Shown here: one piece after another, positions 47-50,544 of the stretch
How positions within the stretch are numbered: the stretch's first letter is position 1
Layout: every line of letters begins with the position of its first letter
From: an uncultured bacterium
Lineage (GTDB): Bacteria > Krumholzibacteriota > Krumholzibacteriia > Krumholzibacteriales > Krumholzibacteriaceae
Direction: 5' to 3'
Length of the DNA: 64,000 nt
NCBI GenBank assembly: GCA_963747385.1
Contig: CAVVEY010000006.1
Location: 88,118-152,117 of the forward strand
Position numbers and translations under genes: made by a program
Notes under the pieces: model-generated
Told to the model about the DNA's origin: nothing
Databases searched by the model: none
What the model saw: only the letters and a program-made list of their open reading frames with translations

Positions 47-1864
47 ATGAACGGAAGAAGCGCGAAAAAGTACGAGATCTGCAATACGCTGGCGACCGGC
101 GGAACGGCCGTGCTCTACAAGGCGATCCAGACCTCGCTCGACCGGCCCGTCGTCATCAAGAAGCTCCATTCGCATCTCATTTCGGATCCGAACTTCACGC
201 GCCGGTTCGAGCTCGAGGCGAAGGCCGTCGCGAGCCTCGACCACGAGAATATCGTGCGCATCATCGATTTCGGATCCGCCGAGGGAAATTACTTCATCGT
301 CATGGAATATATCGACGGGCCGTGTTTCAAGGACGTGCTCTCGTCGCGGCGCGTCATCTCCGAGGATCTCATGCTGCTCGTCGCCCGCGAGATCTGTCTG
401 GGGCTCGACCACGCGCACCAGCGCGGCATCATCCACCGGGACATCAAGCCCGCCAATATCATGATCACGCTGGAAGGGCAGGTGAAGATCACCGACTTCG
501 GTCTCGCGAAGCTTCACCAGAGCCAGACGCAGCAGACGGTCGCCTCCACGCTCCTCGGCACGCCCCTCTACATGTCCCCCGAGCAGGCGATCGGGGATTC
601 GATCGACGGAAGAAGCGATCTCTTCTCCCTCGGAACGATCTGCTACGAAGCTATCACGGGAACGCAGCCCTTCCTCGGCGACAACTACGCCGCGGTCATA
701 CAGAATATCATCAACGGCGGCATCAGCGCGCCTTCGCGAATACGGAAGGATATCAGCCCCGGCGCGGAGGAGCTCGTCATGAAGGCGCTCCACCGGGAAC
801 CGGGAAAGCGCTTCAGGAACGCCCTTGAAATGGCGCGCGCGATCGAATCGCTTCTCGGGCAGGAAAGGATCGCCTCGGCCCGCGACCGGCTCAGAAGGCT
901 CGCCGCCGGCGAGGACGATCTCGCTGCCCGCACGCGGCGTCCGGCCCGGAAAAGTCCACGGAAAAAACGTCTGCTTTCCCTCGGCATCGCGGCGGCGTGC
1001 ATAGCCTCCGCGGCCGTCGTCGTCTCGCTGAACCCGAACGGCGTCCGGAATATCGTCGACGCCTTCAGGGTAATCCGCGGATCCGATCCGGCGCCTCCCC
1101 CGGCGAATCCTATCCTCGCCGGCCAGGGTGAAGAGCTCCCCGGCGTCTCGATGGCCGCGCTCGCGGAACCGACCCCCGCCGAACCGGCCGCCCCCGATAC
1201 CGCGGGCGCCGCGTCCGAGGCGCCCCGCGATTCGGGACGCGTCCTCGAGAACAGCACGGGGCGTTTCTCGCTCTCGAACGCCGAAGAGACGAGAAAGGCC
1301 GAGATGGAAAAGGCCAAACTGATGCAGCCGCTGCCGCCGATCGAAAAGGCCGCCGGGCCGCCTGAAAAGCCCGTTATCGAGAAAAGCGACGCGCCGCCGG
1401 CGGCGAGCGCCCGGATCGAGGCGCCGGCGACGGGATTCATCGATATCGACGTCGAGCCCGCGGCGGAAATACTCGTCGACGGACGGCGACGCGCCGTCGG
1501 CGGCCGTCTCGCGATGCTCGAGCTTCCCGCGGGGACGCACGAGATCGCCTGCAGGAGCGAGGGGTGCCGCGATTATCTCGAAACGGTGCAGGTCAAGCGG
1601 GGAGAGCTCTCGAGAAGGACGATCACGCTCGAGAAGCTCACCGGAATGCTCTCCATAGAAACGGCCGCCGGCGCCCAGATCTTCGTCGACGGTGCGTTCA
1701 AGGGAACGGTCCCGCTCGGCTCCCCCCTCGACGTTCCGGCGGGGACGCACCGCGTCGAGCTCAGGAAAGCCGGGTTCCAGACCTGGGCAAGCCCGGTGTA
1801 CGTCCCCCAGGACGAAACCGTGCGCCTCGCGATCAGTCTCGTCCCGGTATCAACCTCCGAGTAG
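47..1864 (+). CDS. Ser/Thr protein kinase with C-terminal PEGA-type domains
   Basis: 605-aa ORF. Hanks kinase motifs are readable ([33 protein letters not shown]). A Pro/Ala-rich linker carries one TM-like segment ([19 protein letters not shown]). Two C-terminal repeats have the VDG...PAGTH pattern typical of PEGA domains. Confidence 0.85.
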
Positions 1865-8470: not shown

Positions 8471-9510
<1,040 letters not shown>

Positions 9511-9699
9511 CGCGCGCGACGATCGAGGAAACGATCGACACCCTTCTCGAGAACGTCGAGCTTTCGACGGGGGACCCGATCCTGCCCCGGATCGAAGGGA
9601 TGATCGTGAACAAGGTCGTGGAGAAGATCGGCGATAAAACGAAGGCGGCCGCGGTCCTCGGCATATCGAAACCAACCGTCTACGCGAAGCTGAAGAAAT

Positions 9700-31088: not shown

Positions 31089-32679
31089 CTACGATCCGGG
31101 AATACCCTTCGCGCCGAGCGCCGAAACCGAGCGAAGCCGCTCGATCGTTTTGGCCTTTCCAAGTAGAACGATGACCCAGAAGATATCCGGCGACACCGTC
31201 TTGCCGGTAAGGGCGACCCGGCTCGGATGGATGAGCTCTCCCGCCTCGATCGTGAGGCGGTCGGCGAGGCCCCGGAGCGTTTCCTCGACCGAAGCGCGAT
31301 CGAAATACTGGAGCTTCTCGAATTCGTCGGCGAGCGCCGAGAGCCGCGAGGAAGCTTCCTTCGTCATGAGATGGTTGCTCACCGCCGCTTCGTCCCGCGT
31401 GTAATCGTCCCGGTAGAAATAGCCCATGAGATCGGGAACGTCCTTGAGAAGCTTGAGCCTGTTTCCCAGGGTCTCGATGATGAGCGCGAGGCGCGGGATC
31501 TCTCGCGCATAGGCGCGGCTTCCCGCGTCGGGCGCCTCGGCCCGCACCGGTTCCTTCCCCGGCACGAGCTTGAGATCGACGGGACGGGAAAGATCGACTT
31601 CGAACGACGGCGGCACAAGCCCTTCCTCCTCGAGAACGCCGTACACGAGCTCCGCCTTCGCCGCCGGAGGCAGCGTCTTGAAATGCTCCGCGTTGATCCA
31701 TTCCATCTTGGCGAGATCGAAAACAGCCGGGTTGCTCGAAACCCTCTTGAGAGAGAAAGCCTCCACGAGCGCCTTGAGGGTGAAGAGCTCGCGCGTGCCG
31801 TCGAGCGACCAGCCGAGGAGCGCGAGGTAGTTGACCATCGCCTCGCTCAGGTAGTGCTGTTCGCGGTACGAATCGACCGAGGTCGCGCCGTGGCGCTTGC
31901 TGAGCCTCGTCTTGTCGTGACCGAGAATCATCGGAAGGTGCGCGAACTTAGGCGCACGGTATCCGAGCGCGTTGAAGAGATGCACCTGCCGCGGCGTATT
32001 GGAGATATGATCGTCGCCGCGGATCACGTGGCTGATCTTCATATGGCCGTCGTCGACGACGACGGCGTAGTTGTAGGTCGGCCGTCCGTCGCTCTTTGAT
32101 GAGGACGAAATCGTCGAGATCCGCGTTCGCGAAGGTGAAATCGCCCCTGACGACGTCGCGGAAACGCACGTCCCCTTCGAGGGGCATCCTGAACCTGACG
32201 ACGAACGGAAGGCCGCGCGCGAGCTTCTCGTCGATCTCGGACGGATTCAGATCGCGGCACGTGAGCGTGTACTTCGGGGGAAGCTTCTTCGCCTCCTGCT
32301 CGACCCGCGCCGCGTCGAGCTCCCCGGTCGTGCAGAAGCAGCGGTAGACTTTTCCCTCGCGCATGAGCCGCTCGATTTCGGAATGGTAGAGAACGCCGCG
32401 CGCCGATTGCACGTACGGCCCATACTCGCCGCCGACGTCGGGGCCCTCGTCCCATTCGAGCCCGAGCCACCTGAGTCCGCGCAGGATGCCCTCGTACGAC
32501 TCGCGCGTCGAACGCGCCGCGTCGGTATCCTCGATGCGGAGCACGAAGACGCCCTGATTCCTGCGGGCGTAGAGGAAGTTGTAGAGCGCGGTCCGCGCCC
32601 CGCCGACGTGGAGATGCCCCGTCGGGCTCGGCGCGAAACGCACCCGGATCGTATCGTCGTTCTTTTCGATCAGACTCAT
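31089..32679 (-). CDS. gltX: glutamyl-tRNA synthetase, frameshifted in assembly
   Basis: N-terminal ORF (RFAPSPTGHLHVGGARTALYN...) and C-terminal ORF (MKISHVIRGDDHISNTPRQ...KLSKRHG). They join as DFVLIK|SDGRPTYNYAVVVDDGHMKISHVIRG when one T of the TTT run at 32095-32097 (plus strand) is removed. Confidence 0.9.
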
Positions 32680-36944: not shown

Positions 36945-38975
36945 TTGAACCGGAAACGGATCGATATGGCGCAAAACCGTCAGAATAAGAACAAATCACG
37001 CAAGGAACAGCAGATGCAGAAAAAATGGCCTCCTTCCAGCCCCCTGCCGGGCCCCCAGCGGACGTCCCGATCGATGGCGCTCTGGGTCATGGTGCTCATC
37101 ATCATGTTCATGGCGTACCTCATGTTCAACACGAACAAGGAACGGGAATGGACGCTCACCTACACCCAGTTCGTCAAGCAGATCGAGAAAGGCAACGTGT
37201 CTCGCCTGAAAATCAAGGGGCTCGAGCTCAAGGGCAAGCTCGTCAGCGAGATCGTGATCCCCATGGGGGACGGTGACGCCACCATCTCGAGCTTCCGCGT
37301 CATTCTCCCGGCCGAAGACAAGGACCTGCCGGACAAGATCTGGGCGAAGAATCCCGACGCCCAGATCGAGGCGGAATTCCCGGGAGGCAGCGCCTGGACG
37401 AAGGCGCTCTTCGCGGCGCTCCCCCTCCTCGCGCTCTTCGTTCTCTGGATCGTCCTCATGCGCCAGATGCAGTCCGGAGGCAACAAGGCGTTTTCGTTCG
37501 GCAAGAGCAAGGCGAAGATGATCGACGCCGGCCTGCCTCGCGTGACCTTCGCCGACGTCGCCGGCGCCGACGAAGCGAAGGAGGAGCTCCAGGAAATCAT
37601 CGAATTCCTGCGCGAGCCGAAGAAATTCCAGAAGCTCGGGGGGCGGATTCCGAAGGGAGTCATCCTCCTCGGACCGCCCGGCACCGGCAAGACCCTTCTC
37701 GCGAAGGCGGTCGCCGGAGAGGCGGGCGTGCCGTTCTTCAGCATGAGCGGTTCCGATTTCGTCGAGATGTTCGTGGGCGTCGGCGCGAGCCGCGTGCGCG
37801 ACCTGTTCGACAAGGGCAAGAAGCACGCGCCGTGCATTCTCTTCATCGACGAGCTCGACGCGGTGGGCCGCCACCGCGGCGCGGGGCTCGGCGGCGGACA
37901 CGACGAGCGCGAGCAGACGCTGAACCAGCTCCTCGTCGAGATGGACGGTTTCGAGACGAACGAGGGAGTCATTCTCCTCGCCGCGACGAACAGACCGGAC
38001 GTGCTCGATCCGGCGCTGCTGCGGCCCGGGCGCTTCGACCGGCGCATCGTCGTCGACATGCCCGATCTGAGGGGACGTCTCGGCATATTCAAGGTGCACA
38101 CGCGCAAGGTGCCGCTCGCCGACGACGTCGATCTCGACACGCTCGCGCGCGGAACGCCCGGCTTCTCGGGCGCCGACATCGCCAATATGGTCAACGAGGC
38201 GGCGCTCCTCGCCGCGCGGCGCGACCGTGACAAGGTCATGATGGAGGATTTCGACGAGTCGAAGGACAAGGTCATGCTCGGGCCCGAGCGCAAGAGCCAC
38301 ATCATGAAAGAGGACGAGCGGCGGATGAGCGCGTACCACGAGGCGGGACACGCCGTCGTCGGCATGCACCTCGAGCACGCCGATCCGCTCCACAAGGTGA
38401 GCATCATACCGCGGGGAAGAACGGGCGGGGTCACTTCGTTTCTTCCGACGGACGACCGGCACGAGGTCTCGCGGGAGTGGTGCATCGATTTCATCACGAT
38501 ATCGCTCGGCGGACGCGTCGCCGAGGAGCTCGTTCTCAACCGGATCGGGACGGGGGCGCAGGAGGACATCAAGCAGGCCTCGCGCCTCGTCCGCAAAATG
38601 GTCATGCAGTGGGGCATGAGCAGCAAAATGGGACCGATCGCATACGGCGACCATGACGAGCAGATCTTCCTCGGCAAGGAGATCGCCGTGCGGCGCGACT
38701 ACAGCGAAGACACGGCGCGCGAGATCGACAACGAGGTGCGCACGCTCATGAGCGAATGCCACGAGCGGGCCCGGCACCTTCTCGCGGAGCACAAGGAGGA
38801 TCTCCACAAGGTCGCCGCCGCGCTCCTCGAACGGGAATCGCTCGACGCGGAGGATATCAAGATCCTGCTCAACGACGGGATCCTGCCGCCGCTCAAGAAG
38901 AATTCGGCGAATAACGGCGGCGCGGCGAAACCCGCCGCTGACGCCGGGGAGCCGGGCGGACAGGCCCTCGCGTAG
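36945..38975 (+). CDS. ftsH: ATP-dependent zinc metalloprotease FtsH
   Basis: 676-aa intact ORF: [56 protein letters not shown]. An alternative ATG lies at 36966. Confidence 0.95.
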
Positions 38976-39026
38976 CTCCCGGCGCGGAACGATCCCACGG
39001 CATCCTGCCCGGGCACGTAGTGAAAT

Positions 39027-40241
39027 ATGCGCTATCCCCTTCGTTTGATATCTCCGCGGCCGAGAGGCGCCCTCGCGCGCGTTCTCGCCGAAGCCGGCGT
39101 CGATCCTCACGGCGTCGCGATCGTCGAGCGAAAGGCCGAAACGATCGTCGTGCGCGTCGACCGCGTCGCGGCGCCCGTCGCGAACATCATCAAACAGCAG
39201 CTTCTCTCGATGGGCGGCGACGCCGCGGTGCACCGCGACGCCATCACCGGCGGTCCGCCGCAATCGACCGTCTACATCATCGCCGACCGCAACAGGCTCG
39301 CGCAACTCCCCGCGAAGCTCGCGCGGCAGCCGTTCGGCCTCGCCGGGCTCGGGGCGGAGATCGAGCGCCTGCTCGGCGTTCTGGAACGGCCCCCCGCGAG
39401 GGTGAGCCTCCCGCGCGGCGAAATAGACCTCGCGGCGGGCCCGATCGTGATGGGCGTGCTCAACGTCACGCCGGACAGCTTTTCCGACGGAGGGGCCTTT
39501 CTCGATCCCGGCGCCGCGCACGAGCGCGCTCTCGCGATGATCGAGGAGGGCGCGAGCGTCATCGACGTCGGCGGCGAATCGACACGTCCCGGCGCGGCGG
39601 AAACGAGCGTCGAGACGGAGCTCGAACGCGTGATGCCGCTTCTCCGCAGGCTCGGCGGCGCGATACCCGTCCCCCTCTCGATCGATACGCGCCGCGCGGC
39701 CGTCGCGCGGGCGGCGATCGACGCCGGAGCGGCGATCGTCAACGACGTGAGCGGTCTCCGGCGCGACCCGGCGATGATCGAGACGGTCCGCGATTCCGGA
39801 GCGGCCGTCGTCGTCATGCACATGCAGGGAACGCCCGAGACGATGCAGGCGAACCCGAGCTACGCGGACGTTACGGGAGAAATTATCGCCTGGTTCGAAG
39901 AACGCACGGCCGAGCTCGTTCGCGCCGGGCTCGATCGCGAGAAGATTATCGTTGACCCGGGATTGGGTTTCGGAAAAAGATTGGAGGACAACCTGGCGAT
40001 TCTGAACGAGCTCGGAGACTTCGCCGGTCTCGGATTTCCCGTGATGGTCGGCTACTCGAGGAAATCGTTCATCGGAAGAATCACCGATCGCGAGCCGGCC
40101 CTGCGGCTTCACGGCGGGTTCGCGGCGCTCGCGAAGTGTCTCGCGGGAGGCGCGGCGTTCGTCCGCGTCCACGACGTCAAGGAAACAGTCGATTTCCTGA
40201 AGGTCTGGAAGGCGATAGAAAGCGCGGGGGGCGATCGATGA
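39027..40241 (+). CDS. folP: dihydropteroate synthase with an N-terminal extension domain of about 130 aa
   Basis: IVMGVLNVTPDSFSDGG, IDVGGESTRPGA, NDVSG, DPGLGFGK, MVGYSRKSFIG. Confidence 0.85.
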   Translation: MRYPLRLISPRPRGALARVLAEAGVDPHGVAIVERKAETIVVRVDRVAAPVANIIKQQLLSMGGDAAVHRDAITGGPPQSTVYIIADRNRLAQLPAKLARQPFGLAGLGAEIERLLGVLERPPARVSLPRGEIDLAAGPIVMGVLNVTPDSFSDGGAFLDPGAAHERALAMIEEGASVIDVGGESTRPGAAETSVETELERVMPLLRRLGGAIPVPLSIDTRRAAVARAAIDAGAAIVNDVSGLRRDPAMIETVRDSGAAVVVMHMQGTPETMQANPSYADVTGEIIAWFEERTAELVRAGLDREKIIVDPGLGFGKRLEDNLAILNELGDFAGLGFPVMVGYSRKSFIGRITDREPALRLHGGFAALAKCLAGGAAFVRVHDVKETVDFLKVWKAIESAGGDR

Positions 40242-41014
40242 GCACTTTTCATCTCAACCTGACGATCGACATCCTCGACATCATCATCGTCTCGTTTCTG
40301 TTCTACCGGCTCTTTCTCCTCATCAGAGGAACGAGAGCCGCGCAGATGTTCATCGGCCTCTTTATCCTGATCGTCATCTCCTTCGTCGCGCGCTGGCTCA
40401 ACTTGAACGCGCTGAACTGGCTTCTCTCGAGTCTCAAGACGGTCTGGGTCGTCGCCTTCGTGATCCTCTTTCAGCCGGAGCTGCGGCGCGCCCTGTCGCT
40501 CCTCGGCCAGAACCGCATCATCGGCTATTTCCTCAAGGTCGAGGAGTCGAGCACGCTGAGCGAGATCGTCAAGGCGTGCCATCAGCTCACGCAGAACGGC
40601 CTCGGCGCGATCATCGTGCTCGAGAAGGATGTCGGCCTGCGGAACTACATCGAGACGGGAACGCCGGTCGACGCCCGCGTTTCGGCGGAGCTCCTCGTCA
40701 CGATATTCACGACTCCGAGCCCGCTCCACGACGGCGCGGTCATCGTCGAGAAAAACCGCATCGTGGCGGCCGGCTGCATTCTTCCCCTTTCCCAGAATCC
40801 CCGCCTCACGAAATCGCTCGGCACAAGGCATCGCGCGGGCCTCGGCTTGAGCGAGGAAACCGACGCGGTCGTCATCATCGCGAGCGAGGAAACGAGAACG
40901 ATCTCGCTCGCCGTCGGGGGAAAGCTCAAGCGCAAGCTCGACATAAACACGCTCCGCAACGATCTTGCGGGCATGATCGGCATCAAGACCGAGGAAGCGG
41001 CTTCCGTCTCCTGA
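40238..41014 (+). CDS. cdaA: diadenylate cyclase CdaA (DisA_N) with three N-terminal TM helices
   Basis: The ATG overlaps the folP stop (ATGA). Reads GAIIVLE, PLHDGAVIV, GTRHRAG, ETDAVVIIASEE. Confidence 0.85.
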   Translation: MSTFHLNLTIDILDIIIVSFLFYRLFLLIRGTRAAQMFIGLFILIVISFVARWLNLNALNWLLSSLKTVWVVAFVILFQPELRRALSLLGQNRIIGYFLKVEESSTLSEIVKACHQLTQNGLGAIIVLEKDVGLRNYIETGTPVDARVSAELLVTIFTTPSPLHDGAVIVEKNRIVAAGCILPLSQNPRLTKSLGTRHRAGLGLSEETDAVVIIASEETRTISLAVGGKLKRKLDINTLRNDLAGMIGIKTEEAASVS

Positions 41015-41262
41015 CGGCCGATGCAAAAGAGAGGAGTGAAGGCCTCGCCCGTCCCCGCGTCCGCCACCCCGCCGACCGACACTCCTCTTGCTGCCAGGCA
41101 CGCGCGCTTTCCGGCAGGGCATAATAAATGCCGAACCCCATGCCCTCGATGCGCGGATTTTCAATTGATTGCGCGGGAACGCGTTGCGCGAAGGCGCACC
41201 GCCGGGGAGCGGATCGAAACGGCCGTCGCGGCGTGAACGCCGTTGCCGTTTCGCGATCGGCG

Positions 41263-42807
41263 TTACCGCCGTATCTTGCCGCTCGTGACGAGTTGTTCGA
41301 CGTACGCGACGACGTCCTGATCGAATTTCTCGCTCTGGTTCTTGAGCTGATCGATGCTCTCCTCGAGAGAAAACGCCCGCCGGTAGGGACGGTCGCTCGT
41401 CATGGCGTCGAAGCTGTCTGCGACCGCGACGATGCGCGCGCCGAGCGATATTTCGTTTCCCTTGAGATGATCCGGGTAGCCCTTTCCATCGAGCCGCTCG
41501 TGGTGGTGGCGGACGAGGTCGCAGGCCGATTCGAGAAATTTCATATTCTTGATGATGTTGGCGCCCACCTCGGGATGGCTCCGGACAATGTCCCATTCCC
41601 GCTCGGTGAGCTCTCCCGGCTTGTTGAGGATTTCCTCGTATACGCCGAGCTTTCCGATGTCGTGGAGCGCCGCGCCGAAGCACACGATCTCCAAGTCGCG
41701 CTTCGAGAGCCGCATCTCCTCGGCGATCATGCGCGCATACTCGGCGACGCGGTCCGTATGGCCGCGCGTGTAGGAATCCTTCGCCTCGATCGTCGAAACG
41801 AGCACCTTGATCGTCGAGAGGTAGGTCGCCTGCAGCTCCCCGTAGAGACGCGCGTTCTCGAGACCGGTCGCGGCGGACGTGCATATCGACTTGAAGAGGT
41901 CGAGCTCGTCGGTGACGTATTCCTGACGGTTCACCTTTCCGCCGATGAACACGATCCCGATGAGCCGCGATTTCACGATGAGCGGATACCCGTATTCGAA
42001 TCCGAACCGGGTCAGGAAATTCGCCTCTCGTTTCGCGTCTTCCGGGAATCCCTCGTCGCCAAGCCTGACGCATTCGTGTTTGCCGAGGAGGTATTGCGAA
42101 AGGGCGATCTCGCGCGAAAGTCTCACCGACTGGAGCACGCTGTTCGATACGCCGCTTCCGCCCGCGTAGGAAAGATACTCGTCCATCTCGTCGAAGGCGT
42201 AGAACAGCGCGACGGAGCTCACGCCGAGCTGCCCGATGACGGTGAGGCAGAAGACGCGAATGAGATCCTCGGGATCGCGGAGCCGGTTGAGATCCTGGCT
42301 CAAACCCGAAAGGGAACGCATATCGAGAACCTTCTTCTTGAGCTCGCGATTGACCCGGGTGTAATCGGCCTGCCCCCGCTGCACCTCCCCCTCGAGCTGC
42401 AGGTTCTGCTCGCAGAGATTCTTTTTGCGGCGCGACTGGGCGAGATAGTTTTCGACCTTGACGAGCATTTCCTTGAGGGAAAACGGCTTCCTGAGATAAT
42501 CCTGGGCGCCGGCGCGAAGCCCCCTGGCCATCGAATCCTGGACGGAGTTCGCCGAGATCATAATGACGGGCACGTCGCGGTGAACGTCCCTCGCGCGAAT
42601 CGTATCGCACACTTCGAATCCGTCTTTCTTCGGAAGCGCGACGTCGAGGACGACGAGGTCCGGCTGGAAGCGGTCGTACTTCGCGAGCGCCTCGTCGCCG
42701 TCCGAGGCCGACTCGGTCTCGTATCCCTTGTTCCGGAGACATTCGGTGAGTATCTCTATGACGTTCGGGTCGTCATCGACGACCAGTATGCTCCCGTTCA
42801 CGCTCAC
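41263..42807 (-). CDS. response regulator: REC, coiled coil, GAF, intact HD-GYP
   Basis: REC (ILVVDDDP, DLVVLDVALPKKDG, YLRKPF). HD-GYP motifs are all present (GHTDRVA, AALHDIGKLGV, HHHERLDGKGYP, VADSFDAMTSDRPYR). Confidence 0.85.
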   Translation of the reverse strand: MSVNGSILVVDDDPNVIEILTECLRNKGYETESASDGDEALAKYDRFQPDLVVLDVALPKKDGFEVCDTIRARDVHRDVPVIMISANSVQDSMARGLRAGAQDYLRKPFSLKEMLVKVENYLAQSRRKKNLCEQNLQLEGEVQRGQADYTRVNRELKKKVLDMRSLSGLSQDLNRLRDPEDLIRVFCLTVIGQLGVSSVALFYAFDEMDEYLSYAGGSGVSNSVLQSVRLSREIALSQYLLGKHECVRLGDEGFPEDAKREANFLTRFGFEYGYPLIVKSRLIGIVFIGGKVNRQEYVTDELDLFKSICTSAATGLENARLYGELQATYLSTIKVLVSTIEAKDSYTRGHTDRVAEYARMIAEEMRLSKRDLEIVCFGAALHDIGKLGVYEEILNKPGELTEREWDIVRSHPEVGANIIKNMKFLESACDLVRHHHERLDGKGYPDHLKGNEISLGARIVAVADSFDAMTSDRPYRRAFSLEESIDQLKNQSEKFDQDVVAYVEQLVTSGKIRR

Positions 42808-42821
42808 GTATCGTTATCCTC

Positions 42822-44621
42822 CTACGGCGTCCCCACGCCCTGGCGAACCGACTGCGCTATTTCCTTCTCCATGATCCGCGCAAACTGCAGGATAACCTCC
42901 CGGTCGTACCGCAGTCCGTAATTCTCCTTGAGCGCGCCGAGCGCTTCGTGCCCCGAGAGCGCGGGCCGGGTCGGCCGTTCGTGAATCATCGCCGCGTAGC
43001 TTTCGACGACCGATATGATGCGCGAGCCGAGCGGAATTTCCTTGCCACGGAGACCGTACGGATATCCCTCGCCGTTGAACCGCTCATGATGCGTTCTCAC
43101 GATGCTGACGACGTGGTCGCCGAACTTCATCCGGGAGAGCATCTCGGCGCCGTCCTCGGGATGCTTCTTGATGATCTCCCATTCTTCCCTCGTAAGATCG
43201 CGCGGGCTGCGCAGGATGAGATCGCTCACCTTCACCATGCCCATGTCGCGGAGCACCGTGCCATAGATGAGGTCCTTGAAATGCTCTTCGGAATAATCCA
43301 TATTCTTCGCGACCATTCCGACATACCGCGAAACGAATTCGGACGTGCCCTTGAGAAGCGTATTTTCCTCGATGATCGATATGAGCGTCTTGACGATGCC
43401 GAGCGTGCGCTCGTGCTCCCGGTCGAACATGACGGCGTTATCGTACGCTCCCTGGGCGATATTGACGAGAATGCGGAGAAACTCGAAATCCTCTTCCTTC
43501 ATGCCCCTGCCGGCGATGCGCTTGCCGAGCAGAACGAGCCCCGAGGTTCCGTCCTTCGTACGGAACGGGCACACATATTCTATCCCTTCCCCCTTGATGA
43601 TCGCCCTGACACCGTCCTCCATCGCGAAACCGTCCACCGGAATCACGTTGTTCTCTCCCATCACCTTCGCAAAGGCGTCCGCGGGGATCTCGAGCCGCAG
43701 GAGCGACTCGGGCTCGAATCCCTTGGACATTATCGGCTTGAACGATTTTCCCTGATTTTCGAGAAACACCGCCGATTCGACGCCTCCCTGGGCGATCGAG
43801 GTAAGGAGGAAGATATCGAGCAGCTTCCTGCGGTCCCATATCGCGTTGAAATCGGCGCTGATCGAGAAGAGCGTCTTGAGCTCGAGAATGCGCCGGCGAA
43901 GCCGCCGGTTGAGATCGACGACCGTGGCGTCTTCCTTCTTTTGCGGCGCCGCCTCGCCGTGATTCGCCGCCGAAATGCCGCTCCAATCGGACAACCCCTC
44001 CGCCACCGGGCCGTTGAAGATCTCGTCTATGATCTCCTCGGCGGCGGCGTCGACGGGCAGGTCCTCGGAAGTGGCCCGGCGCGGAGCCGGGGAATTCACC
44101 GGCGGCTCGTCGACGGCGTCGTACGACATGATAATCACGTTCGAATCGACGCCTGCGGAAGCGTTCGCGGACGGCGCGGCGGTCGCGGCGGGCGCTGCGG
44201 GAGATGCCGCCGTTTCCTCCGCGACGTTCCGGGCACCGGAGGCCGCCGGCGCCGCGTTCGGCGTACTCGCCGCCGGCGCGTCGCTCGATGACAGAGCCTC
44301 GTTGAGCGAGCGATGAATGGAAACGGAGCGTTCGCCGTCTTGAAGGAATTGCGTAATGATGTCGTTCGTGACGACGAAACGCACGCTTCCCCCCTTCGCC
44401 GCGATCGCGTCGACGAAATCGCGAAGAATCTTCGCGACCCCGCCGCCGAGCGACGAGAGTTGGGAGAAGTCGAATATAACGGTGCGCATATCGCGCTTCA
44501 GGCATTCCTCGACGAGACGCTGGATCTTGGTGTTCTCGTGGAATCCGAGCTTTCCCTCGATCCGGAACGCGGCCACGCCGGGACTGCCGACTTCGATTCT
44601 CTCGAACTTCGTTTTCACCAT
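42822..44621 (-). CDS. STAS, Ala/Pro-rich linker, GAF, degenerate HD-GYP protein
   Basis: STAS-like N-terminus (AAFRIEGKLGF...VIFDFSQLSSLGGGVAKIL...VRFVV). The HD-GYP-like C-terminus keeps HHERFNGEGYP, but the HD position reads VLRDMGM and the first His motif reads TSEFVSRYV. Confidence 0.75.
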   Translation of the reverse strand: MVKTKFERIEVGSPGVAAFRIEGKLGFHENTKIQRLVEECLKRDMRTVIFDFSQLSSLGGGVAKILRDFVDAIAAKGGSVRFVVTNDIITQFLQDGERSVSIHRSLNEALSSSDAPAASTPNAAPAASGARNVAEETAASPAAPAATAAPSANASAGVDSNVIIMSYDAVDEPPVNSPAPRRATSEDLPVDAAAEEIIDEIFNGPVAEGLSDWSGISAANHGEAAPQKKEDATVVDLNRRLRRRILELKTLFSISADFNAIWDRRKLLDIFLLTSIAQGGVESAVFLENQGKSFKPIMSKGFEPESLLRLEIPADAFAKVMGENNVIPVDGFAMEDGVRAIIKGEGIEYVCPFRTKDGTSGLVLLGKRIAGRGMKEEDFEFLRILVNIAQGAYDNAVMFDREHERTLGIVKTLISIIEENTLLKGTSEFVSRYVGMVAKNMDYSEEHFKDLIYGTVLRDMGMVKVSDLILRSPRDLTREEWEIIKKHPEDGAEMLSRMKFGDHVVSIVRTHHERFNGEGYPYGLRGKEIPLGSRIISVVESYAAMIHERPTRPALSGHEALGALKENYGLRYDREVILQFARIMEKEIAQSVRQGVGTP

Positions 44622-44646
44622 CGGATCGCTCCCTGCTCCAGAGCGC

Positions 44647-44889
44647 TCAATCGAGGACCTTGACCACCTCTTCTTCCTGAGCGAGCCAACGATCGAGAAC
44701 GCTCCTCAGGAATCTCCATTCGCTTCCGACCTTCTTCGCCGGTATCTTCCGTTCCTTGGCCAACCGGCAGACGGTCTTCACATGCATCTTGAGGTACTCC
44801 GCCGCCTCGACCGACGTCATCACTTCGACTGCGTCGTCATGGCCTCCGATGATGATACTGCCGTAATCGTGCTGATGCTGATTGGACAT
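44647..44889 (-). CDS. excisionase/MerR-superfamily helix-turn-helix protein (HTH_17-like)
   Basis: MTSVEAAEYLKMHVKTVCRLAKERKIPAKKVGSEWRFLRSVLDRWL. The start is taken at MSNQHQ (RBS GAGGTGGAG). An upstream start at 44961 would overlap the previous gene by 8 nt. Confidence 0.7.
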   Translation of the reverse strand: MSNQHQHDYGSIIIGGHDDAVEVMTSVEAAEYLKMHVKTVCRLAKERKIPAKKVGSEWRFLRSVLDRWLAQEEEVVKVLD

Positions 44890-44953
44890 CTCCACCTCTC
44901 TCCGTTGGTGGCCCGACCTCGCCCCTGCCCGAGAGATCGGTCCGCTCACTGTG

Positions 44954-46564
44954 CTACACACGCGGGACCGTTACCTCCTGATCGTTCACCTGCCCACCAT
45001 CCGCATACGTTCCGGCTTCCTCCGGGCCGCCTTCGATGCCCTGAAGGGAGCTCGATATGCGCAGTACAAGATCCACATCGATAATCGGAAATTCCTCTTC
45101 CCCGAGATTCAGTATCGATTTCGCGAGCGAAGCCCACGAACCTTCGGTAACCTGCTCCGCGAGACAGTCGATCGTGCGGCTCGTCCCGTCGACGAGCAGG
45201 CCGACCCTCTTTTCGGCGCGGCCGATGACGAGGACGCGATCGGCCCGTCCGGACGATTCGAACTCGTCGACCACCGCGATCTCTTCCATCGTGTAAACGG
45301 GAACGCGAATCCCCGAAAGAGTTACGCATCTCCCTCCCGATCCGCGCTTCGGCTCGATCGCATCCATGCCGACCGTCGTATCGACCGCGTGGCGCGGCAC
45401 CGCGAGCCTCTTGCCCGAGGCGTTGAAGATCTGGAAATCGGTCTTCCCTTTCGTCCGCGGGAGGGTGAACATGAACCTTCCCTCGCCGGCGCCGCCGGGC
45501 TCGATCCAGAGGAGCGAGCCAAAGCCTTCGAGCCGGCCGCGCACCTCCCTGAAGCATTGATAGAACGCGCCCGCGTCGTCCCGGTCGATCTCCGAATCGC
45601 AGAGATAATCGGGGCTGTTATCCTGTATCTTCGCGACGAGGAACGAGCCCTCGCTCCGAATATCGACGCCGATCGCGAGCGAGAGGTCGTCACGCACCTC
45701 GTTCCGCTTGCAGATATCGAATATGCACCGGATGAGTATGGAGACGAGGGCGGAGGCGTTCTCCCGGTCGAGCGTGCATTCGGCGCACCGCGTCGCAAGC
45801 CGCGCGTTCCAGCGACGGATCTGCAGATACGCCCCGAAAAAATCCTTCAGCCCGTCGAGCACCGCGTCGCACGAGATTCTGGCCGTGAAGGGCTTGTTGC
45901 TCTTTCCCAGCATCCGCATCGTCTCGGCCGCGAGTCCCATATAGAATTCGCTCTCGCCGAACGCGACCTCGAGATCGCGCATCGACTTTTCCCCGCGGCT
46001 CGGCTTGTCGATGAATTCCTGGAACATGTCCCTCACCGCGGCAAGCGAGTCGACCAGTCTCGTAAACGTCGGAACGTGCTCCGCGCCCGCGGGCCGATCT
46101 TCCCCGGAACGCGCGTCGGCGGCCGGAGCCGCGGAGATCGTGACCGTTTCCGCGGCGGTTTCATGCGGCTCGCTCGAGAGGCACTCGATCTCCTTGAGCA
46201 GGCCCTCGAACTGCTCGTGGCGGGCGAGCTCCTCGAGCTCTCCCGCGAGTATCTCCGCGACGATCTGCTCCTCGGTCTCCAGGATCTCGGATACGAGAGT
46301 GGAAAGCTGTTCGTCCCAGCACCGGCCGGCGCGCGCCGACTGCTCCAGGAGGTCGCGGAACGCCTTCAGGGTAACGCTCCAATCGCCGAGATCGAGCATG
46401 CGCGTGCTCCCTTCGAGGAGACGCGTCGCGAGGCACGCCCTGCGAATCGTCTGCTCGCTGAAGCGGGCGCCCGACGAAAAGCCCATAAGGTCGTTGAGCT
46501 TTTCTATGTGGTCGTTGACCTGCTCGCCGAACAGACGTCTGTTATCCTCTTTGAGTATCACCAA
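44954..46564 (-). CDS. CheA-like scaffold: Hpt-like N-terminus without the phospho-His, degenerate HATPase-like core, C-terminal CheW-like domain
   Basis: 536-aa intact ORF. The Hpt-like helix reads IRRACLATRLLEGSTRML where CheA has H-T-L-K-G-S. The core (ALVSILIRCIFDICKRN...IQDNSPDY...) has no clear N/G1/G2 boxes. The CheW-like tail reads FQIFNASGKRLAVPRHAV...LSGIRVPVYTMEEI...RVLVIGRAEKRVGLLVDG. Confidence 0.65.
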   Translation of the reverse strand: MVILKEDNRRLFGEQVNDHIEKLNDLMGFSSGARFSEQTIRRACLATRLLEGSTRMLDLGDWSVTLKAFRDLLEQSARAGRCWDEQLSTLVSEILETEEQIVAEILAGELEELARHEQFEGLLKEIECLSSEPHETAAETVTISAAPAADARSGEDRPAGAEHVPTFTRLVDSLAAVRDMFQEFIDKPSRGEKSMRDLEVAFGESEFYMGLAAETMRMLGKSNKPFTARISCDAVLDGLKDFFGAYLQIRRWNARLATRCAECTLDRENASALVSILIRCIFDICKRNEVRDDLSLAIGVDIRSEGSFLVAKIQDNSPDYLCDSEIDRDDAGAFYQCFREVRGRLEGFGSLLWIEPGGAGEGRFMFTLPRTKGKTDFQIFNASGKRLAVPRHAVDTTVGMDAIEPKRGSGGRCVTLSGIRVPVYTMEEIAVVDEFESSGRADRVLVIGRAEKRVGLLVDGTSRTIDCLAEQVTEGSWASLAKSILNLGEEEFPIIDVDLVLRISSSLQGIEGGPEEAGTYADGGQVNDQEVTVPRV

Positions 46565-46575
46565 GAGGCGTCACC

Positions 46576-48534
46576 TCATCTCTGTATCTGGCTCTCCTTG
46601 ACATACTCGACCGCGCCGAGGTCAAGGAGATCGTAAATGGTCTCGCCATCGTCATTGTTCTCCGCGCCGAGAGGCGCCTCTTCGAGCGATTCGAATACGG
46701 TCCCGGAATCCTCAGGCAGCGCCTCGGGAGAAGCCGACGCTACCGTGACGCTGACCTGCCCCGCCTCGTCCTCGATTTCCGTTTTCTCGACTTCCACCTT
46801 CCGCCAGGGGTGTCCCGGTTTTTCCCCGGGGCCGCCGTCTTCCGGCGTCTGTTCCCGCTCGCGCGCGGGCTCAGGAACCGTTTCGACCTTGCCGTCGAGC
46901 TGTCTCAGGGAGGACATATCCGAATAATCGGACGCATTTCCTTCACTCGCGGCTTCCGGCGCCGCATGGGCGAAGGCCTCTTTCATCTCGTCCAGGTTCT
47001 TGAACGAGAACCCTTCTTCCTCGCTCCCTTCGCTTTCCGTCTTTTCGCGAACGTTTTCCCGCGGATGCATGCCCTTCCATGAGCTGCCGTGATCGATGAC
47101 CATATCGAGGGAATCGGCCGAGTCGTCCGCGGCATCTCTCTCCTGCGCCGCCGGCGCGGCGCCGGGGCCGCGCGAAGCGCCGAGGTCGGCGGCGACGCCG
47201 TGCGGGGATCGGGAATCGTGAACCGTTTCATGCGAGCCCGGGCTCGCCATATCTTCCTGAAGAATCTCGTGCACGTCATGCAGCTCGCTTCCGAGACCCA
47301 TGATCCGCTTTTCGAGGGCGGAGCTCCGCTCGTCGATCCGGCGCGCGATTTCGACTATCGCGCCGGAGGCCTCCGCGTCGATCGCGGCCGCGGGCATTTC
47401 GATCTCCGTGCCGGCCTTTTCCTTGATCGCGTAGCAGCTTCCGAGAAGCCCCTGGGCGATGCCCGACACGCTGTCGCTCAGCTTGTGAAAGCGCTCCGCG
47501 GTGGAACGGACGCGCTCGGCGAACGTCGCCAGGGCGTGCTCGTCCACGTTTCCCCGCGCCGCCATGAGCGCGAGATGTATCGCGATGCCGTTATTTTCCT
47601 CGGAGAACTCGTGGAGCACGCGGCCGCCTTCTTCGAGCTTGCGCACGGAGCTCTCCATCTCGGACATGGTCGTCTTGAGCGCCCTGGCGTTCGAGCCGGC
47701 GGCGCCGCTTCGCGCCGGCGCGGCGTTCCGGGCGGCGGCGTTCGCATTGATGCGCTCGGCGACGCTGGTAAGCTCCGCGACGGAATTCGTGATCGCGAGC
47801 AGTTCCTCCCCGGCGCCGCTGATCGCCTCCATGGCCCTGCCGTAGGCGAGCGTCGCGTTGCCGTAGGCCCGCCGCTCCGCCTCGTTCCGTTTTTCGAGCT
47901 CCTCGATGCGCGCGCGGTCCGCGTCGACGCGATCGCGCAGCTTTTCGTATATCGATCCGCAATCCTTCCCCTCGGGAACGTCCTCGCCGGCGCATTCCCC
48001 GCTGATGAGGCTTTCGATCTCCGATTTGAGCTCCGAGTAGTTCGACGCGTTATCCTTCGTCCCGAGATCCTGGGATATCTCGCGGATCTGATCGCCGTAG
48101 TTCCTGAGCACCGCCTGAAGCTCGGGATACTGCGAGAGCCGCGCGATCTGGGCAGGGTTCGTAAGGTCGTCGATGCTCTCGGCGAGCGATATCATCGTGC
48201 GGTAATCCTGTCCCGAGTCGAGGTAGAATTTATAGCGGTGCACCGCCGAAGCGATGAGAAAATAGGCGAAGAGCGAAACGATGATGACGGCCGCCGCAAG
48301 CGGAAGCATATCCCTCATGAAGAGCGTGGAATCGACGCTCCAGCCGCCGGCGCCCGATTTGATCCACTTGAGATCGACGTTGTAGAAGCTCACCAGGTAG
48401 TACCCCACCCCCAGGCTCATGAGAACGAGAAGGAGAGATACGAAGATCCCGATTTTCCACGGAGATGTGAGGACCGGCTGCTTGTCCCTGCTCTTTCTCT
48501 TTTTCACCTTCACCTTTGTCTCCTTCGTCGTCAT
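46576..48534 (-). CDS. MCP-like membrane protein: 2 TM, no periplasmic sensor domain, divergent signalling hairpin, long acidic tail
   Basis: The start is taken at MTTKETKV. The TM helices are WKIGIFVSLLLVLMSLGVGYYLV and MLPLAAAVIIVSLFAYFLIASAV. The tip-like segment FSEENNGIAIHLALMAARGNVDEHALATFAERVRSTAERFHKL aligns by eye with the Tsr tip [38 protein letters not shown]. Confidence 0.6.
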   Translation of the reverse strand: MTTKETKVKVKKRKSRDKQPVLTSPWKIGIFVSLLLVLMSLGVGYYLVSFYNVDLKWIKSGAGGWSVDSTLFMRDMLPLAAAVIIVSLFAYFLIASAVHRYKFYLDSGQDYRTMISLAESIDDLTNPAQIARLSQYPELQAVLRNYGDQIREISQDLGTKDNASNYSELKSEIESLISGECAGEDVPEGKDCGSIYEKLRDRVDADRARIEELEKRNEAERRAYGNATLAYGRAMEAISGAGEELLAITNSVAELTSVAERINANAAARNAAPARSGAAGSNARALKTTMSEMESSVRKLEEGGRVLHEFSEENNGIAIHLALMAARGNVDEHALATFAERVRSTAERFHKLSDSVSGIAQGLLGSCYAIKEKAGTEIEMPAAAIDAEASGAIVEIARRIDERSSALEKRIMGLGSELHDVHEILQEDMASPGSHETVHDSRSPHGVAADLGASRGPGAAPAAQERDAADDSADSLDMVIDHGSSWKGMHPRENVREKTESEGSEEEGFSFKNLDEMKEAFAHAAPEAASEGNASDYSDMSSLRQLDGKVETVPEPAREREQTPEDGGPGEKPGHPWRKVEVEKTEIEDEAGQVSVTVASASPEALPEDSGTVFESLEEAPLGAENNDDGETIYDLLDLGAVEYVKESQIQR

Positions 48535-48751
48535 ATGCAACGCAAACGGCCCGGCGCACGATCCTGGTATGCTGAAAGGGCGTAATTCTCGGTCGCTGCG
48601 GAAGTTCGCAAGTATTATGCCAGGGGTCGCCGTACGCAAAACTGTCGTTCCGATAAGACGTTATGAGGAATTTCGACGGAAAAGAAGGGACATGGCGCAG
48701 CAATGCGCGGCTGTTACTTCGCGTTTTGCATGGGAGTTCGCGGCCGTCCGC

Positions 48752-49556
48752 TCAGCGCCGCTTCTGGACGAGCGCCGTGTAGAGCTGGGGAACGCGGTCT
48801 TTGAACAGGTGATTGTTCGGCGTGAAGTTCTTGTTGTTCGCCTCCCCGACGTCGATCTCGACGACGCGGAGCGACTCGCTGCGGTCGCTCGCCGAGGCGA
48901 GAACCTCTCCCATCGGATTGACGATCTGGCTCTTTCCGGTGAAGGTGAGAGCGGCGGCGCCCCGGCCTTCGCTCCCGATCCGGTTCGCCGTGATCGCGAA
49001 GACGCGGTTCTCGATGCAGCGCGTTTTCATCGCATCCTGGGCGTAGGGAAGGACGAGGTTCGACGGATGACAGAGAATCTGCGCCCCGCCGAGGGCGAGG
49101 ACGCGCGAAACCTCGGGAAAGGCCCAATCGAAGCAAATCAGGAGCCCGAGCTTCGCGTCTCCGGCCGAAACCACCTTGAACGACGATCCCCTCGTGAAGA
49201 AGAGCTTCTCGCGATCGAAGAGGTGCACCTTCTGATAGACCTCGACCTTTCCTTTCGACGGAGATGAAGACCGCGGAATTGTAGAATGTGCTCCGGTGCT
49301 TCTGCGCCATCCCGAATACGAGATTCAAGCGCCTGCGCTTCGCGAGCTTTTGCATCTCGGTGACGGTGAATCCTCCGGGGATCGACTCGGCGAGGGACGC
49401 GAGCTCCTTCTCGTTCCGGAAGAGATAGCCCGAGTTGAACAACTCGGGAAGAACTACCGTCGCGTCGGAAAGCCTGTCGAGAATCGCCGCCGCCTTGCGG
49501 ACATTCTCTTTAACCGCGCCAAACCGCGGACGCAATTGGAGAAAACCGATTCGCAT
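48752..49556 (-). CDS. carbon-nitrogen hydrolase (nitrilase superfamily), frameshifted in assembly
   Basis: MRIGFLQLRP...VVLPELFNSGY...YNSAVFIS|SKGKVEVYQKVHLFDREK...LGLLICFDWAFPE. The join needs removal of one base at 49260-49261. The Glu-Lys-Cys triad context is visible. Confidence 0.8.
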
Positions 49557-49719
49557 CCTCTTCCCCCTGCGTTTATGTGACCGTTCCGGGGGGCGCCCCC
49601 GGCTGGAAACGCATTATAGCAGATAACTCACCGTGATACAGCACCTTATTGGAAACGCGAAAGCGCCTCGAATTTCAGCATGGCATGGAGCTTGCACGAC
49701 TCAAGGAGGACAACGAGTT

Positions 49720-50544
49720 ATGCATTCCGCTCCGCAACCGTGGAGAAGCACCATGGCGGTTTCGACACGCTCTACGACCCTTCACGTCACCCCGAAAACC
49801 TCGGGCGGGGACGCTTACTTCTTCATGATGAACGGCCTTCTCCACAGCCGGATGGAGGCGGGTTTTCCCTCGAACGACATTTGCTTCGACGAAGACGTGA
49901 ACGTCTATCTCGCGAGCCTTCTCACGTCCCTTATCTTCCCGCGAAACGGCGACGACGGCGCCGGATGTCTGCTCCCCGTCGATGCGTCGCTCTTCGAAGC
50001 GGCCGAAGCCGCGGCCGGACCGAGAGAAAAGTACCGGATGTACAGGCGCTCAGCCGACCGCATTCTCGTCTCGCTCGGCATCTTCAAGAACGCGCGCATG
50101 AAGCGCCCCGATTCGGTGCCGCACCTCGCGACGAGCGACGCGGCGCATATCGGCCGGGGAAAAGCGTACTACGCGATCGCGCGGGCCTACGCCGCGCAGG
50201 TCCATCGCAGGAATACCGCGATCGGCGACGTTCTCGGAAAGCTCTCGGATCATTTCGAGCGGTACCTCGGAGTTCTCTCGCTCATGGGCGGGGAGCATCT
50301 CAATATTTTCAAGCAGCTCTCGGACGGCGAGCTCTTCCACCTCGAGAGCTCGCCTCGCCCGGCGGAAAAGAGCGCGGAGCTCGCGCTCCGGCACGACCGT
50401 TTCCTCGATCTCTATTCGAGCTACCTGGAAAACAAATCGGCGCGGACAAGAGCGGCGCTCATCGAGGCCGTGCGGGAGATCCGGGCGCTGGATCCCTCGT
50501 TCGAATTCGACATCGACGCGCGGGAGCGCGTCAGGCCCGTCTGA
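49720..50544 (+). CDS. hypothetical protein
   Basis: RBS AAGGAGG lies 9 nt before ATG 49720. 274 aa with good coding character (DAYFFMMNGLLHSRMEAGF...). No family recognised. Its 3' end overlaps the convergent hydrolase gene by 14 nt. Confidence 0.5.
   Translation: MHSAPQPWRSTMAVSTRSTTLHVTPKTSGGDAYFFMMNGLLHSRMEAGFPSNDICFDEDVNVYLASLLTSLIFPRNGDDGAGCLLPVDASLFEAAEAAAGPREKYRMYRRSADRILVSLGIFKNARMKRPDSVPHLATSDAAHIGRGKAYYAIARAYAAQVHRRNTAIGDVLGKLSDHFERYLGVLSLMGGEHLNIFKQLSDGELFHLESSPRPAEKSAELALRHDRFLDLYSSYLENKSARTRAALIEAVREIRALDPSFEFDIDARERVRPV

Follow-up and report, generated by a model that had tools for sequence, protein, structure and literature searches.

The 64,000-nucleotide stretch analysed here (hereafter the window; contig CAVVEY010000006.1 of assembly GCA_963747385.1, from an uncultured member of the Krumholzibacteriaceae) carries five closely packed minus-strand genes, g1 to g5, which encode a membrane protein resembling methyl-accepting chemotaxis proteins (MCPs), a CheA homologue, a small helix-turn-helix (HTH) protein and two HD-GYP proteins of the cyclic di-GMP (c-di-GMP) type. 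We read this block, with a probability of about 55%, as a sigma-54-transcribed operon for a chemoreceptor-array-like complex that would work without phosphotransfer, the wiring of which we infer. Its second product, g2, is a CheA homologue with the domain order P1-P3-P4-P5 and no P2. By all sequence criteria g2 is predicted to be unable to autophosphorylate on the canonical His or to bind ATP in the canonical manner; because g2 lacks the two catalytic features that define CheA and has the structural ones, we regard it as a CheA-derived pseudokinase and not as a CheA. The cluster was followed through three lineages: Krumholzibacteriota, Latescibacterota and a third, more divergent lineage known from metagenomes (the latter two being the sister lineages below).

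The CheA homologue g2 and its catalytic residues

A preliminary description of this DNA had called g2 CheA-like, with a CheW domain at its end, and both parts of that statement were borne out. CheW was the only Pfam domain found in the window protein (E 3.6e-8), and the CheA fold emerged from structure and profile. The AlphaFold2 model (predicted local distance difference test score, pLDDT, 80.9) starts with an N-terminal bundle of five helices, which is followed by a disordered linker, a helical hairpin, an alpha/beta domain and, last, a double beta-barrel, and Foldseek aligned ~400-410 columns of it with the P3-P4-P5 region of CheA from the E. coli core signalling unit (8c5v_A) and from T. 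maritima (1b3q_A), at E 2.6e-14 to 4e-13. Modelled alone (pLDDT 89), the N-terminal domain had CheA P1 domains as all nine of its best PDB matches (template-modelling score 0.68-0.81, root-mean-square deviation 2.5-3.8 Å). The g2 family profile matched the P4 end and P5 of T. maritima CheA (E 1.3e-10), and hhalign of the family against full-length E. coli CheA aligned the end of P4 and P5 and nothing more. At the structural level the P3 hairpin and P5 of a CheA are present in g2; the set of four boxes that marks a CheA P4 is not. A PDB sequence search with the P1-like profile returned only the GAP domain of ExoS, a marginal match that we judged to be a helical-bundle artefact.

The preliminary description had further taken g2 to lack both the phospho-accepting His and the ATP-binding boxes. 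This held for the His, the N-box Asn and the F and G2 boxes, all of which are gone, and was slightly overstated for the G1 box, whose Asp (D315) is invariant. The register of His48 is occupied by Arg48 (Lys in some) in 27/27 aligned Krumholzibacteriota g2 proteins and by Lys, Asn or Arg in the sister lineages; the equivalence of His48 and Arg48 rests on the register of a non-significant hhalign comparison of the P1-like domain with E. coli P1 (E 0.13) together with the structural match to P1. Gly52 of the HxxKG motif is retained, and the phospho-His that defines a CheA P1 is absent. Across the 27 family members, Pfam Hpt and H-kinase_dim were found in none (0/27) and CheW in 25, while HATPase_c appeared as a marginal match in four (best E 9e-4) and HATPase_c_2, also marginally, in one. 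The N-box reads ILExCxFDICR, without the conserved Asn, and the G1 region reads xDNGxDF, with the invariant Asp315. From the G1 Asp to the last helix there are 23 residues in g2, compared with 57 in E. coli CheA; therefore the ATP lid, with its F and G2 boxes, has been deleted. On the other hand, eight residues of this dead P4 (D283, D315, Y335, E355, P356, R363, F364 and P369) are invariant over the three lineages, at 17-24% identity to the g2 of the window, which argues for selection on g2 and against decay. A further conserved feature, an Asp18-His19 pair on helix A of the P1-like domain (46507-46512), is invariant in 27/27 Krumholzibacteriota g2 proteins and is not kept in the sister lineages.

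The receptor, the HTH protein and the HD-GYP proteins

For g1, first described as MCP-like and without a sensor domain, the MCP assignment stood through the family profile and through orthologues that pass PF00015, and not through the window protein itself, for which Pfam gave no match of any kind, with MCPsignal missing even at E<=1, and an NCBIfam scan gave nothing beyond an E 0.15 match to Tap. The family profile (26 members) matched the signalling domains of Tm1143 (T. maritima), Tsr (E. coli) and Aer in the PDB at E 5e-8 to 3e-6, with ENNGLALNxALMAARG aligned on the hairpin tip of these solved MCPs; hhalign aligned the tips of g1 and E. coli Tar (E 3e-5); and PF00015 is present in several g1 orthologues. 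An MCP signalling domain is thus recognizable in g1 at the profile level, with a tip (ENNGLALNxALMAARGxxxEHDLA) that is strongly divergent from the canonical one. Hydropathy gave two membrane segments only ~26 residues apart; therefore the receptor has no periplasmic sensor domain, in agreement with the first description. The most conserved part of g1 lies directly after the second transmembrane segment (RRYKFYLDSGQDYRKMISLAxSIDDLTNPAQIARLSxYPELQxVLRNYGDQIREIS); it is HAMP-like by eye and may be a HAMP domain. Behind the hairpin follows a long, acidic and disordered tail in which three short motifs are conserved; the C-terminal one, IYDLFELGAVEY, is kept in Latescibacterota as IDLYELGAVDF and is looser in the third lineage.

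The remaining three products carry the domains first assigned to them, namely an excisionase-type HTH (g3), STAS-GAF with a degenerate HD-GYP (g4) and receiver (REC)-GAF with an intact HD-GYP (g5). g3 matched Pfam HTH_17 at E 8.6e-14; PDB searches with its sequence and with that of the g4 STAS domain returned nothing useful (BldC at E ~1). Two other roles for g3 were considered and dismissed: a magnetosome link, suggested by a weak match to MamR far under its cut-off, and a phage or excisionase function, as the analysis found neither an integrase nor mobile-element genes and the inheritance of the locus is vertical.

g5 and g4 are paralogues (~30% identity over GAF-HD-GYP). In g5, the receiver residues D11, D12, D55, S85 and K107 are invariant in 29/29 orthologues, as are the HD-GYP motifs GHT(D/E)RV, LHDIGK, SHPEVG and VADSFDAM, the Asp of HHHERLDGxGYP being kept in 28/29. 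The metal residues, the GYP motif and the receiver phospho-acceptor Asp of RpfG-type proteins are therefore all in place, and g5 is predicted to be a canonical receiver-controlled HD-GYP c-di-GMP phosphodiesterase. In g4, HH and GYP are intact and the metal ligands are replaced in the same way in 30/30 orthologues: H by S (GTSEFVSRYV), HD by RD, D by N (HHERFNGEGYP) and D by E (VVESYAAM), so that g4 lacks the residue set of an HD-GYP phosphodiesterase. The RD, N and E changes recur in both other lineages, where the first-ligand position differs (it is not Ser in Latescibacterota). Because the substituted residues are invariant, the degenerate domain of g4 is under purifying selection and is not decaying. 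The STAS domain of g4 carries an invariant S57-L-G-G-G motif and is weakly matched by anti-sigma-antagonist models.

Operon structure, predicted promoters and conservation

All five open reading frames (ORFs) are present and intact at the positions first given for them (41263-48534), and their G+C content at third codon positions (0.73-0.82) lies in the range typical for real genes of the window. The junctions were also as first described: 11 nucleotides (nt) between g1 and g2, 64 nt or an 8-nt overlap between g2 and g3, 25 nt between g3 and g4, and 14 nt between g4 and g5. The g2/g3 junction was settled at 64 nt because g3 orthologues begin at the residue encoded by the ATG at 44889. That no frameshift occurs in the block was upheld by alignment of g1-g5, end to end, with orthologues from up to 41 genomes. 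About 40 ORFs, a subset of those in the window, were scanned for che and kinase genes; among them there was no CheB, CheR, stand-alone CheW or CheY, the same set reported missing from the operon, and no histidine kinase. CheR and CheB were also absent from the 10-kb flanks of related loci, and neither a PP2C phosphatase nor a sigma factor was found in the cluster neighbourhood.

A conserved-word search in the spacer between g1 and the CN-hydrolase gene just upstream (g0) returned TGGCATAAT[AC][CT]TTGCG in 31/31 loci, 58-107 nt from the g1 start. This element fits the sigma-54 consensus TGGCAC-N5-TTGCW with correct spacing, and its function as a promoter is predicted; the operon promoter, TGGCATAATNNTTGCG, is invariant upstream of g1 in 31/31 loci, and a sigma-54 match also precedes g1 in the Latescibacterota and third-lineage loci. 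The pattern TGGCAYN5TTGCR has two matches in the 64-kb window, compared with 0.01 expected, and the other of the two precedes u1b, a divergent gene. Farther upstream of g1, an element TTGCAAAACGCAA (TTGC-N5-GCAA) keeps a constant distance to the promoter in 29-31 of the 31 loci; in the form GSAAAACGCRWA it is not enriched within the window, its support being its conservation across loci. A scan of the block for sigma-70 promoters and terminators gave no more sites than in shuffles.

u1b has no Pfam or NCBIfam match and neighbours the cluster in all three lineages. Its promoter is kept in nearly all Krumholzibacteriota and Latescibacterota loci and is unmatched in the third lineage, in which a second sigma-54 site lies ahead of g3. 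u1b may belong to the same regulon as the operon. In Latescibacterota there is also a third sigma-54 match, between g5 and an inserted M16 peptidase gene (L043 15260-15274, L044 12736-12750), a gene missing from this place in Krumholzibacteriota.

The genome scan yielded 41 loci, all from Krumholzibacteriota or from metagenome-assembled genomes (MAGs) labelled as neighbours, and the named sources of close homologues are all Candidatus Krumholzibacteriota MAGs. In every related genome with a long enough contig the five genes co-occur in the order g0-g1-g2-g3-g4-g5. The lowest identities to the window were 33% for g2, 34% for g1, ~50% for g4, ~54% for g5 and 85% for g3, as compared with 70% for FtsH and 72% for IMPDH; g3 is thus better conserved than FtsH or IMPDH of the same loci, at 85-99% identity across the phylum (33-45% for g2 in the same comparison). 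Within the phylum a neighbourhood of ~20 kb is syntenic: IMPDH, a 4Fe-4S protein, an alpha/beta hydrolase, u1b, the CN hydrolase, g1-g5 and, on the opposite strand, CdaA, FolP, FtsH and TilS.

An exhaustive profile search brought up a second tier of full-length relatives (650-720 amino acids (aa), E 1e-50 to 1e-69), in which a receiver is added at the C-terminus. These g2-REC proteins are from Candidatus Latescibacteria (Latescibacterota) and sit in the same cluster and neighbourhood, ordered CN hydrolase, g1-like, g2-REC, HTH_17, STAS-GAF-HD_5, REC-GAF-HD_5, the inserted M16 peptidase and CdaA/FolP/FtsH. Their His position holds Lys, Asn or Arg, their lid is likewise short, and their fused receiver has Glu for the phospho-Asp (LIISEFRxPxMAAK). 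The third lineage encodes a g1-like protein, a g2-REC with a true Asp, g3 and a STAS-GAF-degenerate HD-GYP protein, and has neither g5 nor g0, either through loss or because it never possessed them; g5 is present in Krumholzibacteriota and Latescibacterota. The g3 core is identical to that of the window at 47/50 positions in Latescibacterota and at 42/50 in the third lineage. As g1-g4 stay together where g5 and g0 are missing, the universal core is g1-g4: of the two HD-GYP proteins, the degenerate g4 belongs to this core and the active g5 is lineage-specific. Furthermore, the fusion of a receiver to g2 in the sister lineages speaks for a continued partnership between g2 and receivers.

Table 1. 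Features of the g1-g5 locus in window coordinates
Feature	Coordinates	Strand	Basis or remark
g1, MCP-like receptor, 652 aa	46576..48534	-	family profile, hydropathy, A2 alignment
g1 cytoplasmic N-tail			PVLTSPWKIG
g1 transmembrane segment 1 (TM1)	48388-48456	-	hydropathy
g1 outer loop, 26 aa	between TM1 and TM2		
g1 transmembrane segment 2 (TM2)	48244-48309	-	hydropathy
g1 invariant juxtamembrane segment, possibly HAMP	48067-48243	-	A2 alignment
g1 signalling hairpin tip	47485-47649	-	
g1 C-terminal conserved motif of the acidic disordered tail	46597-46641	-	C-terminal IYDLxxLGAVEY
g2, pseudo-CheA, 536 aa	44954..46564	-	Pfam, AlphaFold2, Foldseek, profile comparison
g2 P1-like five-helix bundle	46172-46564	-	AlphaFold2, Foldseek; R48 for phospho-His
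g2 disordered linker, no P2	between P1-like bundle and P3-like hairpin		AlphaFold2
g2 P3-like hairpin	45908-46072	-	
g2 degenerate P4/GHKL	45458-45880	-	
g2 P5/CheW-like	45041-45445	-	
g3, HTH_17 (excisionase/MerR-like) DNA-binding protein, 80 aa	44647..44889	-	Pfam
g4, STAS - low-complexity linker - GAF - degenerate HD-GYP	42822..44621	-	Pfam, ligand alignment
g4 STAS	44334-44585	-	Pfam, E 9e-9
g4 GAF	43422-43889	-	Pfam GAF_3, weak
g4 degenerate HD-GYP	42894-43385	-	Pfam HD_5, E 2.9e-31
g5, REC-GAF-intact HD-GYP	41263..42807	-	Pfam, catalytic-residue alignment
g5 REC	42454-42789	-	Pfam, E 2.4e-30
g5 GAF	41854-42279	-	Pfam
g5 intact HD-GYP	41311-41805	-	Pfam HD_5, E 3.1e-40; HD, E 4.7e-25
Predicted sigma-54 (-24/-12) promoter, TGGCATAATACTTGCG	48607..48622	-	72 nt upstream of g1 ATG
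Candidate enhancer or HTH site, (T)TGCAAAACGC(A/G)A	48718..48729	-	inverted TTGC-N5-GCAA, ~107 nt upstream of promoter
Second predicted sigma-54 promoter	49681-49696	+	other of the two window matches; 24 nt before u1b ATG
u1b, divergent conserved gene, 274 aa, possibly associated	49720-50544	+	AGGAGG ribosome-binding site

Several observations were made in the surroundings of the block. The g0 gene (48752-49556, minus strand) is frameshifted in the window, with the break at 49259/49260: the parts corresponding to residues 1-99 and 100-266 of the 267-aa intact orthologues lie in different frames and meet at the run GAAAGGAAAGG. Since g0 is intact in all other loci, the break reflects either a mistake in sequencing or assembly or a gene that has recently become a pseudogene. 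A Glu/Gln-tRNA synthetase gene (31089-32679, minus strand) is split into the ORFs 31948-32679 (Pfam positions 2-182) and 31089-32042 (Pfam positions 198-314). This is probably another frameshift, here in an essential gene, and it suggests assembly errors in the contig; the five-gene block is unaffected. CdaA (diadenylate cyclase, the c-di-AMP synthase; 40136-41014, plus strand) is convergent with g5, the stop codons being ~250 nt apart; FolP, FtsH and TilS lie upstream of CdaA, and the cluster is next to cdaA-folP-ftsH in all three lineages. Two long antisense ORFs on the minus strand, 36996-40172 (1058 aa) and 40109-42742 (877 aa), overlap FtsH/FolP and CdaA/g5 respectively; they have no family matches and look like high-GC artefacts rather than genes. 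At the start of the window there is a Ser/Thr protein kinase with a C-terminal PEGA domain (47-1864, plus strand), which has no visible relation to the cluster.

Proposed wiring, alternatives and known systems

The preliminary description had read the operon as a receptor/CheA/CheW array that serves as a scaffold, and the present results support this reading. In the wiring that we propose, g1 dimers would bind the P5 domains of g2 dimers in a membrane-proximal lattice, through tip-P5 contacts as in arrays. A conformational change in g1, whether it starts at the membrane, in the short loop, in the juxtamembrane segment or at the conserved motifs of the tail, would be relayed via g2, whose dead P1-like domain would dock a receiver (that of g5, or the g2-fused one in the sister lineages) and whose dead P4-like domain may dock the g4 STAS domain. 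The outcome would be signal-dependent local control of c-di-GMP, with g5 hydrolysing it and the catalytically dead HD-GYP of g4 sensing it. The c-di-GMP state would then set the availability or activity of the DNA-binding g3, which would probably act at the conserved element ahead of the sigma-54 promoter of the operon itself and might there close an autoregulatory loop. We place much less confidence in any single docking assignment than in the general picture. It is a further step, taken tentatively and at somewhat under even odds, to see here a distinct and ancient class of phosphotransfer-free chemosensory-like systems, a single-copy core in three lineages in which a receptor/pseudo-CheA array with dead P1 and P4 domains would dock receiver and STAS domains and turn a membrane signal into c-di-GMP reception and phosphodiesterase activity and into the action of a near-invariant HTH protein on sigma-54 promoters.

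A number of results weigh against this wiring, and some of them lend themselves to other explanations. The complete phospho-acceptor set of g5 implies a kinase somewhere, and at least one Krumholzibacteriota MAG, a published one, has most flagellar and chemotaxis genes (PMC10936416), so that the same cells may also possess canonical CheA and CheW proteins. g1 and g2 could then be accessories of a conventional array: g2 would join it through its well-preserved P5 fold beside a canonical CheA/CheW encoded elsewhere and tether the HD-GYP proteins, and the g5 receiver would obtain its phosphate from the real CheA. Models for such a role exist in the split CheA3/CheA4 of Rhodobacter and in the array-integration protein ParP, and CheAs without Hpt or HATPase_c are known to cooperate as split kinases. 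However, split CheAs keep one working half each, whereas in g2 a single polypeptide has lost both the His and the ATP site; moreover, the operon has its own receptor, whose strongly divergent tip suggests an insulated pair, and the cluster is vertically kept in three lineages independently of nearby che genes. We therefore consider an accessory role unlikely. Within the cluster itself, D315 (G1) and the acidic D283 at the N-box are both invariant, so that P4 may bind some nucleotide or other ligand. Carried further, P4 could be a live GHKL module that has been remodelled to act on the STAS domain of g4, which would make the operon a receptor-controlled partner-switching system, in the way that SpoIIAB, RsbW and RsbT act on SpoIIAA, RsbV and RsbS. 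The STAS domain fused in g4 with its invariant S57 motif, the resemblance of D315-N-G to a G1 box and the single marginal HATPase_c_2 match would all suit such a system, yet P4 lacks the Mg-ATP-binding Asn of the N-box and has lost the lid with its G2 glycines, the neighbourhood has no PP2C phosphatase or sigma factor, and S57 could not be aligned with the SpoIIAA phospho-serine. The last of these counts against our own wiring as well; a live GHKL switch seems to us improbable.

Gene order alone is weak evidence of functional linkage here, because synteny extends over ~20 kb of unrelated housekeeping genes (IMPDH, CN hydrolase, CdaA, FolP, FtsH, TilS), and the five genes might simply be independent signalling genes held adjacent by an unusually stable chromosomal region. 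Several lines of evidence argue instead for one functional unit: i) a single, invariant sigma-54 promoter stands ahead of g1; ii) the genes share one strand, with junctions of 11-64 nt; iii) their order is shared by 41 genomes and by Latescibacterota; iv) g1-g4 are retained together in the third lineage, without g0 and g5; v) an MCP homologue beside a CheA homologue is a canonical interacting pair. Mere co-location is thus very improbable. A last point against the proposed operon circuit is that no enhancer-binding protein is encoded in the cluster. The lone bacterial enhancer-binding protein seen in the window (8645-9637, plus strand, 330 aa), 39 kb away, is PspF-like, with an AAA+ domain and lid and no receiver or sensor domain, and is a possible candidate for the activator of both sigma-54 promoters.

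Among known systems, the MCP-CheA-CheW core unit (E. coli Tsr/CheA/CheW; T. maritima Tm14/CheA/CheW) shares with this operon the MCP hairpin (g1), the P1-P3-P4-P5 order with a CheW-like P5 (g2) and the adjacency of the two genes. It differs in that g2 has no phospho-His, P2, N-box Asn or F/G2 lid, g1 has no ligand-binding domain and a divergent tip, and no stand-alone CheW, CheY, CheR or CheB is found among the scanned ORFs. The chemosensory classes (Fla F1-F17, Tfp, ACF), which are told apart by CheA/CheW/MCP phylogeny, are built on an active CheA together with CheW, an MCP and a CheY-type receiver; an active CheA is lacking here, as are a stand-alone CheW and a single-domain CheY in the neighbourhood. 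The Wsp system of Pseudomonas runs on an active kinase (WspE), with a pair of CheW proteins, CheR/CheB homologues and, as its output, a REC-GGDEF cyclase. Like Wsp, the present module would tie a receptor and a CheA-like protein to c-di-GMP and not to motility, and the g2-REC of the sister lineages resembles the CheA-REC hybrid WspE; unlike Wsp, it has a dead kinase, no adaptation enzymes, and HD-GYP partners (one degenerate) together with an HTH protein. Caulobacter DivL, a DHp-CA pseudo-histidine kinase that keeps its ATP-binding domain and works outside receptor arrays, offers an analogy, as a strongly selected kinase fold without phospho-acceptor that serves as a receiver-binding sensor or scaffold, but it has no homology to g2 past the GHKL fold. 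In the split CheAs of Rhodobacter sphaeroides (CheA3/CheA4), complementary halves rebuild a kinase, whereas g2 keeps both folds, has lost both activities and has no complementing partner encoded nearby. CheA-lineage proteins lacking the phospho-site or the ATP domain have been recorded as architectures CheA.IX, XI and XII (Vass et al., bioRxiv 10.1101/2022.05.07.491035).

On the output side, g5 agrees with RpfG-type phosphodiesterases in its REC-HD-GYP with all catalytic residues and differs by its extra GAF domain. P. aeruginosa PA2572 is a degenerate HD-GYP protein that keeps the GYP region and lacks the HD metal ligands; g4 shares this pattern and adds a GAF and an N-terminal STAS domain. 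Unlike either type, g4 and g5 are embedded in a Che-like operon. STAS partner-switching systems (SpoIIAA/SpoIIAB, RsbV/RsbW, the stressosome RsbR/S/T) likewise have a STAS domain encoded next to a GHKL-fold protein, but here the STAS domain is fused to GAF-HD-GYP, the GHKL protein has no ATP motifs, PP2C and sigma factor are missing nearby and a phospho-serine is not identifiable. A full-text literature search, not exhaustive, found no description of a receptor/pseudo-CheA/HD-GYP wiring.

To our knowledge, all described chemosensory pathways, whether they serve flagella, pili or 'alternative cellular functions', signal via CheA autophosphorylation. In the present case, strong purifying selection has preserved a receptor/CheA pair in at least three lineages despite the loss of its phospho-site and ATP pocket. 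In public annotations the proteins of the cluster appear as 'hypothetical protein', 'chemotaxis protein CheW', 'response regulator' and 'excisionase family DNA binding protein', and since domain censuses need Hpt and HATPase_c matches to call a CheA, they would list g2 under 'CheW' or among the hypothetical proteins, in line with these annotations, and such systems are invisible to current classification. Several parts of the operon are open to test: the degenerate HD-GYP with its fixed pattern (a candidate c-di-GMP receptor), the near-invariant HTH protein g3, and the predicted sigma-54 promoter with its fixed upstream element. We infer that in this operon a module of the chemosensory type has been rewired so as to dispense with phosphotransfer. 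The module is kept as a core feature by at least two candidate phyla and by a third lineage, and if it does work in this way, the array architecture would be reusable as a conformational signalling scaffold.

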